Counted from the stretch's first letter, positions 19,222 to 41,809 are shown. The stretch is DNA of 64,000 nt from Myxococcota bacterium (GCA_041611735.1 JBFIML010000005.1:1-64000), one strand, 5' to 3'. Notes: a model not told the origin generated them from the letters alone. Translations and numbers: made by a program.

Positions 19222-22200
19222 TCATCCTGAAAGCTTTCGCCATCCTACACAAGATGTCGTGCAGCCGTACGGGAGCGGAGGCAAGCTGCCGCAGGTCGTG
19301 CCGGGTTTCGTCCCCGGCGCCTGCGGGCAGGGGTCGCATGCGTCGCCCATGCCATCTGCATCCGTGTCGATGGCCAGTGGGTCCTGCTGGCAGGTGTCCA
19401 TCAGCACACCCCACACGGGGTTCGACAGGGCGATCCGGTCACCGCAGTGGCCCAGTCTCAGCGAAGACTCCGGACAACTCCCATTCGCACCCTCGAAGAC
19501 GAAGGCATCGTAGTTGTTGGACGCCGCTCGCGCTGCGGCGCGCACGTAGAATCGCTCGCTCCCCGGTTTGATGCCGAACTGTTCCGGGTCCAGCAGGAAG
19601 CTGCCGACGCCGTGATACATCGCCTGTGAGTTGGCGACGGGCAAGCGCAGTCCAGGCCAGGGCCCGGTCGGCCAGCCGGTTGTCGGCCGGCGGAAGTAGC
19701 CCGGCGCAAGATGCCCATCTGGCGCGAAGGTTTCGTTCCGGTTTCCGACGTACAGATCGACGCGTTGGATCGGGCCGAACTCCGGAGTGGACCACCACTC
19801 GACGAGCACTGGGATTTTTTCTCCCGGGTAGAGGTGAAAGGTGGTCCCCATCTGGAAGTCTGTATCATCGATGAGGCCGTTGCGGTTGCGATCGATCGCC
19901 ACCCGCAGCGCTGGTCCGTCGGTCACGCTGAAGTGCCCTCGCTCGAGCGCATCGATGATCTGCCGGTTCGTATAACGCTTGACACCGGGGAGCTGCGCCG
20001 AGGGTGCTCCCTGTGGCGGTCCGACGAAGACGAGATTGCGTGGCTTGCCGATCGCCGTGTCCGTGACCGGGTTGTCCGTCCACTGCTCGAAGCGTCCCCG
20101 TATCTCCGCCACGCCCGCACCGAAGATTCCTCCCGATGCGGACGAGGGGTCGAGATCGGGGCGCCCGTGGCGGCGGTAGTTCAAGTCGCCGTGGCTGTCT
20201 GAGCCGCCTGCTGCGAACCACTTGCGTGGCTCGCCCGGTTGCAGCCAGGCAAGCCCCCGGGTCTGGTGGGGATCCAGTCCTTTGCGGAGGTAGACATCCC
20301 AGATGTAGGTGCCGTGGTACAGCTCCTCCCACAGGTGATTCGCCTTGCGCTCCACCGTCGGCCAGAACCAACCGGTGGGCCAGCGCTCGTACTCGCCGAC
20401 GCGCGCCGGAAAACCGAACGGAACACGGTAGTTGAAGGTGTTGGTGTTGGCTCCTCCGACCGGTGCAGAGCCCCCGTGATGGTACGAGTTGCGAAGCAGG
20501 CGATCGTTCTCGTTCCACAGCTGGAGTCCGAGGATCCCGGGCGACGCCCAGGCCTGGTCCAGTGACACGCGTGAGTAGGGGACCATGTTCGGACCGGCAC
20601 CGTTCGGCTTGCGCCCGCTGACCGGATGCGCGAGGAAGGCGCGGCCCTTGCCCGGGATCTCGCCAGCGAGGCTGCCGATTGTGCGCTGCCCGCCACCGAA
20701 CTTCCCCGTCGCGGCGTCCAACCAGCCAGCCGCGTTGTTCGGCTGCGCGTCGAAGGGGAAGTAGACGAGATGCTGTCGGGACGAGTACCGGCCAGACCCT
20801 TCGACCTCGAAGCTTCCGATGACCGAGGAGAGGAACTCGACGGTGTCCTCGATGACGCCGCCGTACACGGGAACCTTTTCCTCGATCGGCGCGCCCTGCT
20901 CGTCCAGGACGAGAAAGCGCCAGTCGATGCCCAGTGTCGAGCCCCTCTTCGAGATCTTGAGCGGCTTGCTCACGCGGAATCGCTGTCGCAAAGGAGCATC
21001 GACGATGAAGACCTGGTGGGGCCGCGCCCGGTCGACGCACTCCTGTACAGGGATCCCGCCGCACCCCGAGAAGGCACCACCGTCGGCCTCCGGGTGCCAA
21101 GCCGAATAGAGTGACTTGCACGCAGTGCCCTTGTCGGCCCAGCATCCCTCGACGTCCGCCCATGGGTAGCTCGCGCCTGCCCCGAAGGCGATCGCGTTGG
21201 CGCGCTGCTCTTCGTACGACATCTCGGGCCACGAGTCGATCTCTACGCCCATGAACACCTGGGGAAGAAAGCCTGCCTTGGGCCGCGCAAGGCCGAACTC
21301 GACCGCCTCCTTCACGATCGCCTCGTTGGCTCCGTCACCCGCATAGAGCGACTGCTTCGCAGCCTGGAAGCGCCGGATGTTGAGATCCCTGGCCTCTATC
21401 CCCTTGCGCCCACCCGCCTCGACGGCTCCGTCGATCTGCACGCCGCCGGACCCGTGATCGGTGGCGAAGACGAAGTCGAGCCCGCTCGCACCGAGGGCAC
21501 GTGCGACGTTGCGGTAGGTATACGCAGACTCGCCTTCGTTGTCGGTCATCTGGGAGTGGTAGTGAAGGTCCCCGTAGAGCCAGTGCTCCGAGAAGCGCGG
21601 GAGCGGAGCCTCGCCCGCATGCACGACGAGCTGGTTGATCCAGCGCCGCTTTTCGCCTCCGTACTCGGTCTCGACGGTTATGCGGAGCTGGATGTCCCGG
21701 CCCGGTGCAACGGGTCCGCGTGGCTTGTACCACAGCGCTGCGTGCCACTCCGCCGTACCCGAGATGTCCAGCCTGCAGCGGCTCACATCCACATTCGGAG
21801 TGCAGCGGTGCATGGGCGGCTCTTCGTCGACCGTCGAGATCCAGTCCTTCCACTCGATTTCGCGCAGCTGGGTTGGCGCGAACTGGGAAACCCACTTCCC
21901 GCGCTGGAGATCGGACTCCTCCACCTCGACGCGCACGAGCGAGCCCACATGTATGCGTTTCAGGAACACTGCCGCCTTGGTCGATCGGTGGTGATCAAAG
22001 ATCGCGTCGTGGAAGGCGATCGTGATCGGTATCCATCCGTATTCGAGCCCGCCTGTGCCGTGAACCGGCTCGATGCGCCACGGCGCGTCGATGGCGAACT
22101 CGAGCCCCACCTGTCCACCGATCGCGGAGGCGTCAGTGGCGACGAAGCCCAGGGCCAGGACAGCCACGCACACTGTTCCTGCCAGGCCCGCGGCCCGCTT

Positions 22201-22296
22201 CCGCGTGCGGCCCCGTGCCAGCGATGGCTCGCCATTCGAGATTCTCACTGCCCGCCTACGGTCGTCGTAGCCTGAGATCCCCCGGGGATTGGTCAT
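19222..22296 (-). CDS. Large secreted PHP-family (CehA/McbA-like) metallohydrolase with C-terminal thrombospondin type-3-like repeat
   Basis: GDLHYHS, ATDH, GVE, AHP, GGSDSHG metal-ligand motifs; DTDADGMGDACDPCP. Confidence 0.8.
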   Translation of the reverse strand: MTNPRGISGYDDRRRAVRISNGEPSLARGRTRKRAAGLAGTVCVAVLALGFVATDASAIGGQVGLEFAIDAPWRIEPVHGTGGLEYGWIPITIAFHDAIFDHHRSTKAAVFLKRIHVGSLVRVEVEESDLQRGKWVSQFAPTQLREIEWKDWISTVDEEPPMHRCTPNVDVSRCRLDISGTAEWHAALWYKPRGPVAPGRDIQLRITVETEYGGEKRRWINQLVVHAGEAPLPRFSEHWLYGDLHYHSQMTDNEGESAYTYRNVARALGASGLDFVFATDHGSGGVQIDGAVEAGGRKGIEARDLNIRRFQAAKQSLYAGDGANEAIVKEAVEFGLARPKAGFLPQVFMGVEIDSWPEMSYEEQRANAIAFGAGASYPWADVEGCWADKGTACKSLYSAWHPEADGGAFSGCGGIPVQECVDRARPHQVFIVDAPLRQRFRVSKPLKISKRGSTLGIDWRFLVLDEQGAPIEEKVPVYGGVIEDTVEFLSSVIGSFEVEGSGRYSSRQHLVYFPFDAQPNNAAGWLDAATGKFGGGQRTIGSLAGEIPGKGRAFLAHPVSGRKPNGAGPNMVPYSRVSLDQAWASPGILGLQLWNENDRLLRNSYHHGGSAPVGGANTNTFNYRVPFGFPARVGEYERWPTGWFWPTVERKANHLWEELYHGTYIWDVYLRKGLDPHQTRGLAWLQPGEPRKWFAAGGSDSHGDLNYRRHGRPDLDPSSASGGIFGAGVAEIRGRFEQWTDNPVTDTAIGKPRNLVFVGPPQGAPSAQLPGVKRYTNRQIIDALERGHFSVTDGPALRVAIDRNRNGLIDDTDFQMGTTFHLYPGEKIPVLVEWWSTPEFGPIQRVDLYVGNRNETFAPDGHLAPGYFRRPTTGWPTGPWPGLRLPVANSQAMYHGVGSFLLDPEQFGIKPGSERFYVRAAARAASNNYDAFVFEGANGSCPESSLRLGHCGDRIALSNPVWGVLMDTCQQDPLAIDTDADGMGDACDPCPQAPGTKPGTTCGSLPPLPYGCTTSCVGWRKLSG

Positions 22297-22394
22297 AGCT
22301 GGAGGTTCCCTCAAAAGCCCGCTTGGATCTACTATCCGTCGCTGCTTATCGCGTGTATGTCGCCGATTTCGACGCCGGAGACGAGAGCGCCGAA

Positions 22395-22640
22395 GCCCCC
22401 CATGCCCTCCGACACACCCGGGCGAGCCTGCACATGGCCCACGGGACCCCGATCAAGTGGATCCAGGGGCAGGGTGGCTGGGCCTCCGCGAAGATGCTCC
22501 TGGACGTATACGGCCCCTTCCTCAGGGTCGAGAGGCGCGGGTTCGCCGATGTGCTCGCGCGGCCCGGCGACTCCGGGCGTCTCTTTACGTCTCCGCCGGA
22601 GAAACGGGTGGCCAATGCCGAGCCCATCTTGCTGCGTAGG
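22395..22640 (+). pseudogene. Tyrosine integrase C-terminal remnant
   Basis: PHALRHTRASLHMAHGTPIKWIQGQGGWASAKMLLDVYG (HxLRH...W...Y). Confidence 0.8.
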
Positions 22641-22663
22641 TCCCCGCGCCAGCGGGAGAATCG

Positions 22664-22711
22664 GTGGAGCCGACGGCCGGATTCGAACCGGCGACCTGCT
22701 GATTGCGAATC
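22664..22711 (-). repeat. att site: duplicated 3' half of tRNA-Thr
   Basis: 37 bp identical, 46/48 overall, to 41733-41780. Confidence 0.95.
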
Positions 22712-22811
22712 TGAGCGTCGCCTCTACTCCCGCGGACGCCCCCTTTCTCCAACCTGCTAGAATCGCTCTCGAATCGGCGTTTTCCGTTGAGCCTCGAACT
22801 ACGCCTGCTTA

Positions 22812-22860
22812 TGCTTCCGGAAGCCCCGATTTGCTTCCGGATGCTTCCGACCTGCTTCCG
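22812..22860 (+). repeat. Four TGCTTCCG repeats (putative integrase arm-type sites)
   Basis: Copies start at 22812, 22832, 22842 and 22853; two more at 41672 and 41683. Confidence 0.75.
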
Positions 22861-22900
22861 AAATCCGAGGTCAGAGCGTCGCGGGGCGGAGGCGCCCGGA

Positions 22901-24085
22901 ATGGCGAAGCTCAACAAGCGCAGCGTGGACGCGGCCGCGCCGGGCCCGGGCGAGCGCTTCCTGTGGGACGAGGAGCTGCGCGGCTTCGGCCTGCGCGTCT
23001 TCCCCTCCGGCCGCAAGACCTTCTTCGTCCAGTACCGCGATCGCGTCCACGGCCGCACCCGCCGCTACGTGCTCGGCACCTACGGCGTCCTCACCCCCGC
23101 CGAGGCCCGCGCCCTGGCCGTGGAGGCGCTCGCCGAGGTCCAGAAGGGCGGCGCCCCCTCCGAGACCCGCCGCCAGGCCGCACAGGCCCCGACCGTGGCC
23201 GACCTCTGCGAGCGCTACGTCGCCGACTACGCCAAGGCCCGCAAGAAGCCCCGCAGCCTCGCCGAGGACGAGCGCCTGATCGACGACTTCATCAAGCCGG
23301 TCCTCGGCCGCCGCAAGGTGGCCTCCGTGAAGCGCCCGGACGTCGTGCGCCTCCACAACGCCATGGCGGGCACCCCCTACCAGGCCAACCGCGCGCTGGC
23401 CGTGCTCTCGAAGATGTTCAACCTGGCCGAGCGCTGGGGCCTGCGGTCCGACGGCAGCAACCCCGTGCGCCAGGTCGATCGCTTCCGGGAGCGCAAGCGC
23501 GAGCGCTTCCTCAGCAAGACCGAGCTCGCCCGGCTGGGCAAGCACCTGGCCGAGGCCGAGGCCGCCGGCACCGAGAAGGCCCCCACCCTCGCCGCCATCC
23601 GGCTGCTCTTCTTCACGGGCTGTCGTCTCAGCGAGATCCTGGGCCTGCGCTGGGCGGACGTGGACTTCGAGCGGCGCTGCCTGCGGCTCGCCGACTCGAA
23701 GACCGGCGCCCGGGTCGTCCCCCTGAACGCCCCGGCCCTCAAGGTCCTCGCCGACCTCGAGCCAGACGACTCGCCCTGGGTGATCCGCGGCCGCCGGCGC
23801 GGCGCCCCGCTGGTGAACCTCGGCAAGCCCTGGCGCCGCATCCGCGAGGCCACCAAGCTCGGCGACGTCCGCATCCATGACCTGCGCCACTCCTTCGCCA
23901 GCGTCGCCGCCGGCTCGGGGCACTCCCTGGTCGTGATCGGGGCGCTCCTCGGCCACCGCCAGGCCACCACCACGCACCGCTACGCCCACCTGTCGGACGA
24001 CCCGGTGCGCACGGCCACGGAGGTGGTTGGAGCGCGGATCGAGGCCGCCATGGCGCGGCGAGATGCAGGCGACGGCGACGAGTAA
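22901..24085 (+). CDS. Tyrosine integrase with N-terminal arm-DNA-binding domain
   Basis: WDEELRGFGLRV..SGRKTF; catalytic TGCRLSE, SKTG, HDLRH, LLGH, RYAH. Confidence 0.96.
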   Translation: MAKLNKRSVDAAAPGPGERFLWDEELRGFGLRVFPSGRKTFFVQYRDRVHGRTRRYVLGTYGVLTPAEARALAVEALAEVQKGGAPSETRRQAAQAPTVADLCERYVADYAKARKKPRSLAEDERLIDDFIKPVLGRRKVASVKRPDVVRLHNAMAGTPYQANRALAVLSKMFNLAERWGLRSDGSNPVRQVDRFRERKRERFLSKTELARLGKHLAEAEAAGTEKAPTLAAIRLLFFTGCRLSEILGLRWADVDFERRCLRLADSKTGARVVPLNAPALKVLADLEPDDSPWVIRGRRRGAPLVNLGKPWRRIREATKLGDVRIHDLRHSFASVAAGSGHSLVVIGALLGHRQATTTHRYAHLSDDPVRTATEVVGARIEAAMARRDAGDGDE

Positions 24086-24250
24086 GACGCCGCGGAGGCG
24101 CGGGTTCGGCAGCCGGGCGGTTGAAGGACTGACGCTTCGCTGGCAGGGGCTTGGCCGGGCGACGGAAGCTGGATCGGCCAAGGCTTGGGCCGCTCGATCC
24201 CTAGTCCTGCCTCGAGTCGATCGGATCCCCGGCGGGATCGCTTACGGCAT

Positions 24251-25492
24251 CTATGAGTTCGTCAAGGACCTCGGCAACGAGTTGCCATGGCTCGGGTTTC
24301 TCCCGTGGTGGTCAGTTGGTTTCGTTCCGCATGCGCGTGAGCGCGGCGCGGCTTCGCTTGGCAGCGCGCTTCTCGCCGGCGCATCGAGCGTGAACCCGGC
24401 CTCGGCGTAGACGTCGTCGAGGTTGCGCGGTGCCCGCGCGGCGCGATGTCGCTCGTGCTTCTGGAGCTTGCGCAGCTTGAGCCGCGTGCGCTCCACGGCG
24501 GCGTAGCGGTACGGCTGCTGGGTGGTGAGGATGTGCCAGACGATCACGATCAGCTTGCGCGCCAGCGCAGTGACCGCGATCTGATCGCCCTTGCGGCGTC
24601 GGATGCGGTGGTAGGTCGCCGCCAGCGGCGAGCTGCTCCGCGCGATCGTGTGGGCCGCCTCGATCGCCAGCCAGCGGGCGTTGCGCGAGCCGGTCTTGGT
24701 GATGTGGCCGTAGTAGGCGGTGCCGCCGGACTGGCGGATCTTCGGTACCAGGCCGAAGTAGGCGGCCAGCTTCTGGGGGCTCGGGAAGCGGTCGATCGAG
24801 CCGATCGCGGCGAGGAAGCCCATGGCGACGACGACATCGACGCCCGGGATGGTGACCAGGAGCTTCGCGTCCGGATGGAGGCGGGCCTGCTCGAGGAGCT
24901 CGCGATCGAGGGCCTGGAGGCTCTCTTGAACGTGGCGCAGGAGCGCGGCCTGGTGATCCAGCACCAGGCGCTCGGCAGGCGGTAGCTCGAGCTCCGCGAG
25001 CCAACGGTAGCCCTTCTGGCTGAACAGGAACCTCCCCGGGTAGCGCTGGAGGCTGCGGTTCAGCACGGCGTGGATGGTGTTCTTGGTGGCGACGGATTGG
25101 CGCCGCAGCTGGCGCCGATGGGCCATGAGCTGGCGCACGGCCCAGGTCTCCCGGCTCGGCATCGCGACCTCCGGCAGGAAGTCGAGCCGCAGGAGCTGCG
25201 CCAGGATGTGGGCGTCCACCTTGTCCGTCTTGATCCGCGCGTAGGCGATCGCCTTGAGCGGCGCCGGCTCGGCGACCACCACGCGGTCGACGTAGCGCTC
25301 CAGGATCTGGACCAGGGCCCAGGTGTGGAAGGTCGCCTCCAGGGCGACCTCGTCGCCGCGCTCCAAGCCCCGGGCGAAGGCCTCGACGGCCTCCGGCCGG
25401 CCGCCGACGCGGAAGTCCCGGCGCTCCTGACCGTCCTCGGCCAGGCCGCAGACCTGGAGGAACTCCTTGTGGACATCGAGTCCGTAGAACAT
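24251..25492 (-). CDS. IS110-family transposase/recombinase (possible frameshift near 24380)
   Basis: GLDVHK, LEAT, KTDKVDA (DEDD); TIPGV, YFGLVP, QSG, ALARKL; AGGAG RBS; alternative C-terminus AGEKRAAKRSRAALTRMRNETN in another frame. Confidence 0.93.
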   Translation of the reverse strand: MFYGLDVHKEFLQVCGLAEDGQERRDFRVGGRPEAVEAFARGLERGDEVALEATFHTWALVQILERYVDRVVVAEPAPLKAIAYARIKTDKVDAHILAQLLRLDFLPEVAMPSRETWAVRQLMAHRRQLRRQSVATKNTIHAVLNRSLQRYPGRFLFSQKGYRWLAELELPPAERLVLDHQAALLRHVQESLQALDRELLEQARLHPDAKLLVTIPGVDVVVAMGFLAAIGSIDRFPSPQKLAAYFGLVPKIRQSGGTAYYGHITKTGSRNARWLAIEAAHTIARSSSPLAATYHRIRRRKGDQIAVTALARKLIVIVWHILTTQQPYRYAAVERTRLKLRKLQKHERHRAARAPRNLDDVYAEAGFTLDAPARSALPSEAAPRSRACGTKPTDHHGRNPSHGNSLPRSLTNS

Positions 25493-25724
25493 GCACACTC
25501 TCCTGCGGAGAGCCTCGGCGAAGGGTAATTGGGAAGAACGACACGTATCTATTCGCGCTCACAGCGCAGCCGCCCGAGTCGAGGGGGGAACCCAGGTAAG
25601 ACATCGAGCTCGAAGCTCATGCGTTAGTCGGCCGTCCCCACAGATCCTCGGCGTCCGAGGCTCTCCCATTCGTCCTTCGCTTCCGCCGCTGACCTGCGCC
25701 CCGTGGCCGGCGCCGAGAGGATGA
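24253..25724 (-). mobile_element. IS110-family insertion sequence (ends inferred)
   Basis: DEDD transposase; structured 5' non-coding region; TTGACG near the 3' end; TCAT at both proposed ends. Confidence 0.75.
25507..25666 (-). ncRNA. Putative IS110 bridge-RNA-like structured non-coding region
   Basis: Perfect 12-bp inverted repeat (25507-25518 / 25655-25666) enclosing two hairpin-capped internal loops, directly upstream of the transposase. Confidence 0.65.
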
Positions 25725-26078
25725 CCCCGCGGCGCTCAGCGCACGAAGTGCGCGCAACCGGCGGGAAACATCATGCGCGGCAACATAAGGGCAAGTCACA
25801 GTCGCGCTATGCGTCCGGAATCCCCACGGTTTTCGTGAATGGTTCCGCGCCCGGCGCTTCACTTGTGACTTGGATCCGATTGCTCATCAACCGGGATCGA
25901 TTCGGCCGTCTCCCGACCGCCCGTTGACCACCTTGGTGACCGAGACGACGCCAAACCTTTCAAAGCACGTCCTCCGGCCGTCACCGCGGGCGTTGGGCTT
26001 CTCGGCCGGATGCGTTGCGCGGGCGCTCCTGGAAACCTCTCCTCATCGACCGGTCGGAGAGGTGACGCGGGCGTCCTC

Positions 26079-26792
26079 TCACCTGGAAGGGCGAGTCGAA
26101 GAGACGAGTACCAGCATGCCGAGTGCGCCAGCCACCACCGATCCGCCGAGGACTCCGGCCTTGGCGGCTTCGAGGCTCGCTCCTTCGAGGGCCAGGCCGG
26201 AGATGAAGAGCGCCATGGTGAATCCGATGCCGGCGAGGAGCCCGCCTGCGAGGAGCATCCCCCAGGTCACGCCACTTGGGAGGGTTGCGATCCCCGTCCG
26301 AACGACGAGGAAGCTCGCCACGAGGATTCCGACGGGTTTGCCCACGCAGAGGCCTACCGCTACGGCGATGGCGACGTCGTCCAGGCGCCGTGCCCGCCTC
26401 GCCACCCCCGCCCGCCACTTGCGCTGGTGGCGCAGGTAGCCGCGATCGCAGACGACGAGAGACGCGTCCTTGGCGAGCTCGAGGGCCACCGTATCGGGAC
26501 GGCCTCGCCGCAGCACCAGCTTGATCCCCCTCTCAGCCAGCGCCTCCGCCGTCTCCGCCAGGCCTTCGAGCAGGAACGCGAATGCACGCTCGCTGGCGTC
26601 GGGATAGCGATCGTAGAGGCCGAATCCAACCACCACGGACTGGTCGCGTTCGTTCGCCAGCCGCACGGCGTGCTCCAGCGCCGGGTTGTGAAAGGCCCGC
26701 TGCGACTGCTGCATCCAATAGAGGACGTACGAGCCCGAGTCGTCCGGAGGCTCGTCGCTCAAGCTGCGGATGCTTGGCTCTTCGACGCTCAC
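26079..26792 (-). pseudogene. In-frame chimera: class II CPD photolyase N-terminus + NhaA antiporter C-terminus
   Basis: YVLYWMQQSQRAFHNPAL...DRGYLRHQRKWR joined to GLCVGKPVGI...LAGIGFTMALFI..LA...AKAGVL.GS. Confidence 0.85.
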
Positions 26793-26879
26793 GGCCAGGT
26801 GTTCTTCTTCAGCTCGACCTTCGATCGGATCGCCCAGATCAGATGCCGCGGTTTTGTCTCCGACGAGGCCGACATGGTG

Positions 26880-27293
26880 CTAGCGGGAGCCCTTGAATGG
26901 GAGCCGCATCGCCAGCTCCTGAAGTCGCGCCTCCGCCACCTCGCCTGCGCCATCCGAGGCGACCACGAGAAGATCCGGTCCGCCGAGCTCGAGCGCGACC
27001 TGGAGGCACGCGCCGCACGGCCAGGTGAGCTTGCCAGCAGTGCGCGGGGAGACGAGCGCCAGCAGCTCCGGACGGCCCAAGCCCTGGGCAACGACCGAGA
27101 AGAGGGCGGCGCGCTCCGAGCACATCGCGAGACCCAGCGAGACGTTCTCGACCAGTGCCCCGGGGACGACCGCGCCACGATCTGTCACGACCGCCGCACC
27201 CATCTTGAAGCGGGAGTACGGGGAATAGGCTCGTTCGAGCGCTTGCTCGGCCTGCTTCAGCGCCTCTCGGGCGCGCGCGTCTCGGACTTGCAT
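26880..27293 (-). CDS. cdd: Cytidine deaminase
   Basis: AYSPYSRFKMGAA, VEN, CSER, PCGAC motifs. Confidence 0.88.
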   Translation of the reverse strand: MQVRDARAREALKQAEQALERAYSPYSRFKMGAAVVTDRGAVVPGALVENVSLGLAMCSERAALFSVVAQGLGRPELLALVSPRTAGKLTWPCGACLQVALELGGPDLLVVASDGAGEVAEARLQELAMRLPFKGSR

Positions 27294-41733: not shown

Positions 41734-41809
41734 TGGAGCCGACGGCCGGATTCGAACCGGCGACCTGCTAATTACGAATCAGCTGCTCTACCAGCTGAGC
41801 TACGTCGGC
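41734..41809 (-). tRNA. tRNA-Thr(CGT)
   Basis: GCCGACG acceptor, D-arm, anticodon loop TTCGTAA, GGTTCGAATCC T-arm, encoded CCA; 76 nt. Confidence 0.97.

Follow-up and report, generated by a model that had tools for sequence, protein, structure and literature searches.

The 64,000-nt stretch analysed here, from a Myxococcota bacterium (GCA_041611735.1, JBFIML010000005.1:1-64000; hereafter the window, with positions counted from its first letter), carries on its minus strand, from about 25782 to 24248, an element that is very probably an IS110-family insertion sequence moving by RNA-guided recombination, with a bridge RNA of about 160 nt upstream of its recombinase gene. The predicted RNA (about 25666-25507) consists of a 12-bp closing stem and two internal-loop modules. 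Among relatives of the element, loop 1 tracks the host DNA flanking the insertion and loop 2 tracks the element's own ends, and on these two grounds we read the RNA as a bridge RNA. A first-pass annotation of the same DNA had proposed such an RNA and had stated that the proposal would fall if the loop segments failed to covary with their flanks in homologues; examined in homologues, they do covary.

Evidence for target guiding comes from loop 1. In the window its 5' guide (25630-25620) comprises 9 nt (25630-25622) antisense to the right flank, followed by CA (25621-25620), which pairs with the core dinucleotide TG at which the element joins host DNA. The 3' guide (25605-25595) begins with GAUGUCU, which has the left flank's sense; UA stands at the core position, and CC, equal to the first two bases of the left end, completes it. 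Thus, the 5' strand of module 1 would read the right flank and the 3' strand the left flank. Across 63 unique pairs of relatives' guides and flanks, the 5' guide agreed with the right flank at a mean of 4.95 of 9 positions, compared with 2.75 after shuffling (standard deviation 0.17). Likewise, the 3' guide agreed with the left flank at a mean of 4.84 of 7 positions in 63 pairs, compared with 3.12 (standard deviation 0.13), and none of 10,000 shuffles reached the observed mean on either side. These scores include misses and three mis-picked junctions. Counting one pair per distinct guide gave 4.92 against 2.65 for the 5' guide (n=53) and 4.78 against 2.57 for the 3' guide (n=32). One loop therefore covaries with target flanks on both strands, a trait by which we recognise a bridge RNA. 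In the 3' guide, the core is followed by 2 nt that are identical to the start of the left end in 30 of 84 loci (five states) and read UC against CC in a further 26; these 2 nt mirror the handshake guides of IS621. A 6-of-8 match between TAACGCAT in loop 1 and the element end GAACTCAT, to which attention had been drawn earlier, is due to chance, and the segment in question is the guide that is antisense to the right flank. In a genome with six near-identical copies, one copy (L050:941-1082) carries a G-to-A change in its left-flank guide (GCCAUCGUA), and its site reads GCCATCGTA; the right end of this copy has been swapped for unrelated sequence.

Loop 2 relates in the same layout to the element itself. 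The donor-binding module (25581-25539) has a stem CGAC/GUCG, a 5' guide GGGCGGC (25575-25569), a hairpin (25567-25555) and a 3' guide AUAGA-UA-CG (25552-25544), and it would read the joined ends, the 5' strand pairing with the left-end arm and the 3' strand matching the core and the right end's final 5 nt. The right end closes, in 67 of 73 loci, with the same 5 nt that precede the core in the 3' guide, and these occur in four states, AGAGG, ATAGG, ATAGA and ATCGA. Pairing of the 5' guide with the left-end arm varies at one position, which reads A·T in 7 loci, G·C in the window, U·A in 2 loci and a mismatched C·T in 4 loci. The second loop is thus complementary to the joined ends, exactly so at the right end in those 67 loci and with three compensated states at the left end, and covariation in relatives bears out the earlier guess that loop 2 serves the donor and loop 1 the target. 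The 8-nt resemblance between ATAGATAC (25545-25552) and ATAGATGC (24247-24254), which had been presented as a candidate guide matching the insertion flank, is there and does involve the donor guide, but it covers the donor guide, the core and one flank base, and so is mainly the element's own right end. It is weak on its own, with 17 occurrences of such an 8-mer in the window at up to one mismatch against 15.2 expected, and gains meaning only through the relatives.

Similar matches would also be seen if those of loop 2 were subterminal DNA repeats bound by protein, and if the flank matches reflected a fixed target set by the protein, with no RNA pairing. The donor matches are indeed conserved within subgroups, and the target of the window's subgroup (TATCT-TG-CRTTA) is fairly constant. 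This explanation nevertheless appears highly improbable to us, as guides and flanks change together over at least 53 distinct guides, the matching segments lie in the internal loops of compensated helices that contain G·U pairs, and the variant guide of L050 equals its own flank at 9 of 9 positions by eye and 7 of 7 as scored.

The bridge-RNA reading further requires a conserved fold, and one was found. A profile built from window positions 25665-25498 and run with nhmmer over the collected loci gave 110 matches in 108 loci (98 distinct sequences), every one of them upstream of a recombinase gene; the RNA is retained even where the recombinase is only about 40% identical. In a 62-sequence alignment (A4), folded with RNAalifold and a bracket string of our own, two modules emerge, in both of which an internal loop lies between a basal stem and an apical hairpin. 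Paired bases fill 95.7% of cells; sliding the partners lowers this to 27-44%. Both sides have changed in 9 of 30 pairs (covariation score 0.218 versus 0.108 shuffled, reached by none of 500 shuffles). A conserved two-module structured RNA thus occupies the non-coding end of the element. Many pairs are G·U and several are invariant, which places the RNA on the strand of the gene. The target-binding module as a whole spans 25639-25585, with a basal stem 25639-25629/25594-25585 (helix 2) that is 98.1% paired and has 4 of 10 pairs changing on both sides. Its apical hairpin, GAGC-UUCGA-GCUC (25618-25606, helix 3), is paired in 99.7% of cells and shows a GC to AU swap in 16 sequences; helices 4 and 5 of the donor module are 100% and 99.4% paired. 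Both this hairpin and GCGC-UGUGA-GCGC of the donor module had been read from the window beforehand and are present, and the relatives uphold the two-loop guide RNA that had been placed in the 5' non-coding region.

The two modules are enclosed by the 12-bp closing stem, whose arms, GGAGAGCCUCGG (25666-25655) and CCGAGGCUCUCC (25518-25507), are 100% complementary, as the first-pass annotation had seen. Relatives keep the stem with other sequences, in at least seven versions such as GGAGAGUCCCGA/UCGGGACUCUCC, GAGAGUCCGGCC/GGCCGGACUCUC and UGGCCUUUGG/CCAAAGGCCA. The mean longest helix was 10.66 between cognate arms and 8.09 between non-cognate arms, a difference reached by none of 300 shuffles (n=29); among 45 AGAGG-type sequences no such excess appeared (6.44 versus 6.49). 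CCUCGG in the 5' arm can alternatively form a hairpin with 25651-25646 (helix 1, paired in 81% of cells), and the idea that the closing stem is an artefact of this local CCUCGG/CCGAGG hairpin was rejected by the cognate-helix test. Bounded by the closing stem, the window RNA folds with z = -2.94 and the stem appears in the fold, while the RNA of a genome of the same order (G146) gives z = -1.99; folding 25490-25700, with wrong boundaries, gave z = -0.10. A 17-nt inverted repeat (25518-25534/25664-25680, 76% complementary) overlaps the closing stem and cannot nest with it, and represents either an alternative pairing or chance. A search of 22000-27000 against Rfam 15 at E up to 1 gave no match inside the element. 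Three hairpin strings typical of the family had no occurrence in six supplementary text files of PMC11208160, a part of that source beyond which the RNA family may still be represented.

The position of this RNA invites another explanation, that the upstream structure is a 5' untranslated leader controlling translation of the recombinase by masking the ribosome-binding site (RBS), and not a guide for DNA. CUCUCC in the 3' arm of the closing stem can pair either with GGAGAG in the 5' arm or with the identical RBS GGAGAG (25503-25498), similar options exist in relatives, and the RNA abuts the start codon. A leader of this kind would not, however, make the loops follow host flanks or both termini of the element, and we give it very little credence as a replacement for a bridge RNA. 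A regulatory role may exist alongside guiding. A switch of CUCUCC between its two partners, which might tie the fold of the RNA to translation, is possible on the grounds of base complementarity.

The element's ends and its core were defined with the help of relatives. G146 holds two copies that are 82% identical to window 25791..24247 and have a recombinase of 395 amino acids and a canonical stem. Their left flank is a repeat present at 10 places, of which 2 are occupied and 8 empty, and the empty sites read ..CCTTTATCT-TG-C[A/G]TTACGAT... TG occurs once in the empty sites (n=8) and at both ends of the occupied ones, indicating that the core is TG and that the seemingly conserved TTATCT belongs to the target. 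In the genome with six near-identical copies the ends read ...CGTCG-TA-CCTGG-TATGAA and TTGACA-N10-TA. An early model, in which the conserved TTAT[C/G]TTGC suggested a core AT and an element starting with TTAT, was rejected on account of the six-copy group, the guide alignment and the empty sites of G146; the core lies 5 nt further in. We thus take the crossover dinucleotide of the family to be T[A/G], and TG in the window copy. The family layout is core, 5 nt and [T/C]ATGNN at the left end (85 of 108 loci) and TTGAC, N11 and T[A/G] at the right end (73 of 108), with both junction motifs found in 63 loci. Left and right cores are identical in 61 of these 63 (51 TA/TA and 10 TG/TG), in a motif search that demanded T[A/G] in advance and in which some loci are the same place fetched twice. 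Together, the G146 sites and the shared cores show a short core and site-specific insertion without a long target duplication, as in IS110-family elements. The target favoured by the window's subgroup, seen in G146 (L187-L196), is a repeat of more than 100 nt with an internal direct repeat, GACTCCAAC, that flanks the insertion point on both sides. The flanks of the window copy show no similarity to the G146 target repeat, and no integrase lies near the G146 repeats.

In the window, the left junction reads CTTATGT-TG-CCGCG-CATGAT. CTTATGT (25789-25783) is the left target half-site (LT) in host DNA outside the element, TG (25782-25781) the left core copy, CCGCG (25780-25776) the right-donor arm, which pairs with the 5' side of loop 2, and CATGAT (25775-25770) a -10-like box; a leader less conserved in alignment A3 (25769-25667) then leads to the structured RNA. 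The right junction reads TTGACG-AACTCATAGA-TG-CCGTAAGCG. Here TTGACG (24265-24260) is a -35-like box, AACTCATAGA (24259-24250) the left-donor arm, which contains the stop codon TAG (24253-24251) and ends in the 5 nt that the 3' guide of loop 2 matches, TG (24249-24248) the right core copy and CCGTAAGCG (24247-24239) the right target half-site in host DNA. The 3' end had been drawn correctly before; the 5' end had been put at 25724, 58 nt short of 25782/25780. Part of what looked like a conserved end is target, and ends drawn from sequence conservation alone can therefore be misplaced, a caution for annotators.

The -35-like TTGACG had already been noticed just inside the 3' end, and its TTGAC recurs at the right end of 73 of 108 loci. 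The same annotation had seen no clear -10; CATGAT takes that place, and joining the ends at the TG core puts 17 nt between it and TTGACG. Joined ends thus offer a -35, a 17-nt spacer and a -10; for the last, 48 loci have TATGAA and 11, the window among them, have CATGAT. A joined or circular form would in this way create a promoter for the guide RNA, and we regard the junction promoter, deduced from the end sequences, as putative. The left end of a further relative (L106:640-700) has a tandem duplication of about 20 nt over the -10 region, with CTGATCATGTATTCCTCG present twice.

Several points weigh against the bridge-RNA reading or limit its reach. The 2 nt after the core in loop 2 have no clear relation to the right flank, and both 3' guides in the window's subgroup place UA opposite the TG core, leaving an A·C mismatch. 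The left flank of the window copy fits its guide at 3 of 7 positions, a score equalled by 30 of 56 foreign flanks and hence at chance level. No empty site for the window copy came to light, neither flank having a match in 192 other genomes of the order. Most compensatory stem swaps separate a few clades, and independent events are accordingly few. Junctions were chosen by motif, and the counts retain at least three right junctions that were mis-picked. As a -10, CATGAT is weak, and the bridge-RNA reading does not account for the roughly 100 nt between it and the structured RNA. Contigs of four runs contained no circle junction or excision form of the window copy; those of X1, X3 and X5 span 23800-26200 without joints. 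Transcription of the putative bridge RNA, its ends, its promoter and its binding by the recombinase are all predictions.

The recombinase gene corresponds to a minus-strand open reading frame (ORF; 24251-25498) with matches to Pfam PF01548 (E 3.7e-19) and PF02371 (E 2e-21), which bears out the IS110 identity given at first sight. The likely true start is the ATG at 25492-25490, downstream of the RBS, as relatives begin MFYGLDVHK; read from there, the gene (24251-25492) has 413 codons. In an alignment to the ISCro4 transposase the motifs DVHK, EAT, KTDxVDA and QSGG, which we take to be the catalytic residues, are in place. That alignment joins residues 4-351 to the solved structure (entry 9t56) and is distant (phmmer E 1.8e-9), and IS621 can be aligned over the C-terminal domain only. 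By its domains and its alignment to the ISCro4 and IS621 transposase chains, the protein combines a RuvC-like DEDD N-terminus with a Tnp C-terminus, and the element is a member of the IS110 family of DEDD recombinase insertion sequences.

The window copy itself departs from its relatives. It lacks 7 nt (24383-24379) that all 12 aligned relatives have, which accounts for the frame break noted earlier near 24380. From about codon 368 the conserved tail (..PGEKRAAKRSRAALTRMRNE..) is out of frame and reading continues to the TAG in the right end, giving 413 residues; relatives have 395-419, and intact close relatives 395. The lost tail (GEKRAAKRSRAALTRMRNE-like) is kept in 12 of 12 aligned relatives. 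Contigs from three runs of two studies (X1, X3 and X5) agree with the window at the deletion; this agreement comes from contigs rather than reads, and two of the three runs are possible sources of the genome. A relative in X6 has 7 extra bases at the same site. In the RNA, G at 25591 turns a basal-stem pair of loop 1 into a G·G mismatch that is unique to the window among 62 sequences and is the single unpaired cell at columns 39-82. A low-depth contig of 158 nt in X1 (window 25566-25722), from the same community as the window, carries a variant RNA that departs from the window's at 12 positions and has 3 gaps. The departures are concentrated at 25623-25628, within loop 1's 5' guide, and they bring back the pairing at 25591.

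The genome of the host (118 contigs, 95% complete) holds this element as a single copy. A site TG-CGTTA, which is one version of the G146 target repeat, would suit the element's 5' guide; the host genome has no match to TATSTTGCNTTA and no copy of that repeat. Taken together, the 7-nt deletion, the unique G·G, the poor fit to the flanks and the missing cognate target in the host suggest that the window copy is probably impaired or inactive, and likely a relic. The proposal of a programmable recombinase with assignable guides therefore holds for the family and is doubtful for the copy on which it was made. A second IS110-family gene in the host genome (G000:C109:2585-3670, L003) is distant, being 29% identical, and has one internal TAG.

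The copy might instead still be active, with the frameshift and the stem mismatch tolerated and the insertion made by an off-target-type event at a half-matching site. The motifs aligned with the catalytic residues are intact, some relatives naturally read to the same TAG in the right end (415-419 amino acids), and the right flank fits its guide at 5 of 9 positions, as good a fit as only 2 of 62 foreign flanks achieve. Insertion at half-matching sites is reported for IS621 in the available text of 10.64898/2026.08.31.748434, so that insertion of the window copy at such a site is conceivable. We nonetheless consider continued activity unlikely, as the lost tail is kept in every aligned relative, the genome, though 95% complete, has a single copy, and it has no match to TATSTTGCNTTA.

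The element sits 160 nt downstream of a gene for a tyrosine integrase (22787-24085, plus strand). A tRNA-like 3' fragment (22662-22743, minus strand) adjoins the integrase gene; it gives a weak tRNA- or tmRNA-like match in Rfam and no gene in ARAGORN. An intact tRNA-Thr(CGU) lies at 41734-41809 (minus strand), 19 kb from this fragment. About 300-600 nt from the left end of the element, an ORF at 26079-26792 (minus strand) fuses two truncated genes in frame: one for a DNA photolyase, represented by its N-terminal part (residues 23-136, profile positions 1-115 of 164), and one for an NhaA-type Na+/H+ antiporter, represented by its end (the last ~94 residues, profile positions 281-374 of 374).

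For the host genome the meaning of the element is modest, as it amounts to one decaying copy. The RNA family has wider interest. Programmable recombination tools are being developed from bridge and seek RNAs, whose variety in nature sets the rules of design. The family provides a well-resolved natural data set, with more than 50 distinct guides, their flanks and empty sites. Its core is T[A/G] and its guides measure about 9+2 and 7+2+2 nt, and the family indicates that the loop geometry also works with the cassette of RNA and recombinase turned round between the ends. This helps to tell features fixed by the ribonucleoprotein from those set by the layout of the element, and it has a bearing on the derivation of the IS110 and IS1111 arrangements from each other.

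Subterminal inverted repeats of 7-17 bp are a trait of IS1111-type elements. A guide RNA downstream of the transposase gene, the other IS1111 hallmark, does not apply here: the RNA is upstream, and the right end extends only about 10-70 nt past the coding frame. The layout is not that of IS621 either, since here the right flank is read by an antisense 5' guide, and the 3' guide has the left flank's sense. The window 5' guide reads the top strand beside the right end, and the order of strands is thus top-then-bottom.

The published systems are compared here as they appear in the available text of the papers cited. The IS621 loop consists of a stem, a segment termed LTG (nt 50-58, left target, bottom strand), a stem-loop and a segment termed RTG (nt 77-80, right target, top strand), and the left target joins the left end (PMC11208158, PMC11208160, 10.64898/2026.10.21.760802). 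For seek RNAs, Siddiquee et al. describe the top-then-bottom order in IS1111 elements, where the RNA is downstream, and the opposite order in the upstream RNA of ISEc21 (PMC11187229). Many divergent bridge-RNA models exist according to Durrant et al. and 10.64898/2026.10.21.760802, and the arrangement seen in the window may for that reason already be catalogued. The text of the literature, as distinct from its figures (Durrant's Extended Data Fig. 10c among them) and the supplements of bioRxiv papers, gave no description of an upstream RNA with top-strand-first order. We tentatively raise the possibility of a third, undescribed arrangement of RNA-guided IS110 elements, which would combine an upstream RNA, an IS1111-like strand order and an inverted cassette with a covarying closing stem able to sequester the RBS, tying translation to folding or processing of the guide RNA.

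The family is clearly a variant form of the bridge and seek RNA systems already known. Like IS621 and ISCro4 (PMC11208160, PMC11208158), it has a recombinase with DEDD and Tnp domains and an RNA that is encoded upstream of the gene, within the left end; a pseudo-symmetric pair of internal-loop modules, one for the target and one for the donor, with the core in each guide; a long guide beside the apical hairpin, and a short guide with 2 handshake-like nt beside the basal stem; and a promoter, here putative, split over the joined ends. It differs in that the 5' guide of IS621 reads the bottom strand by the left end and that of the window the top strand by the right end, from which we conclude that the cassette of RNA and recombinase is inverted relative to the ends. 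The geometry on the RNA side would then be that of IS621, with the loop strands running top-then-bottom as a consequence of the inversion. Moreover, the core is T[A/G] here and CT in IS621, and a 12-bp stem closes the whole RNA, with a leader of about 100 nt ahead of it, unlike in IS621 and ISCro4. With the IS1111 seek RNAs of ISEc11, ISPa11 and ISKpn4 (PMC11187229) the family shares a segment complementary to the top strand located 5' of a segment matching the bottom strand, whereas their non-coding region is downstream of the gene and their transposases are given as 330-350 amino acids, compared with 395-419 in intact relatives here. With the IS110-type seek RNA of ISEc21 (PMC11187229) it shares an upstream non-coding region and short segments that match both target strands; there the top-strand match lies 3' of the bottom-strand match, and here it lies 5'.

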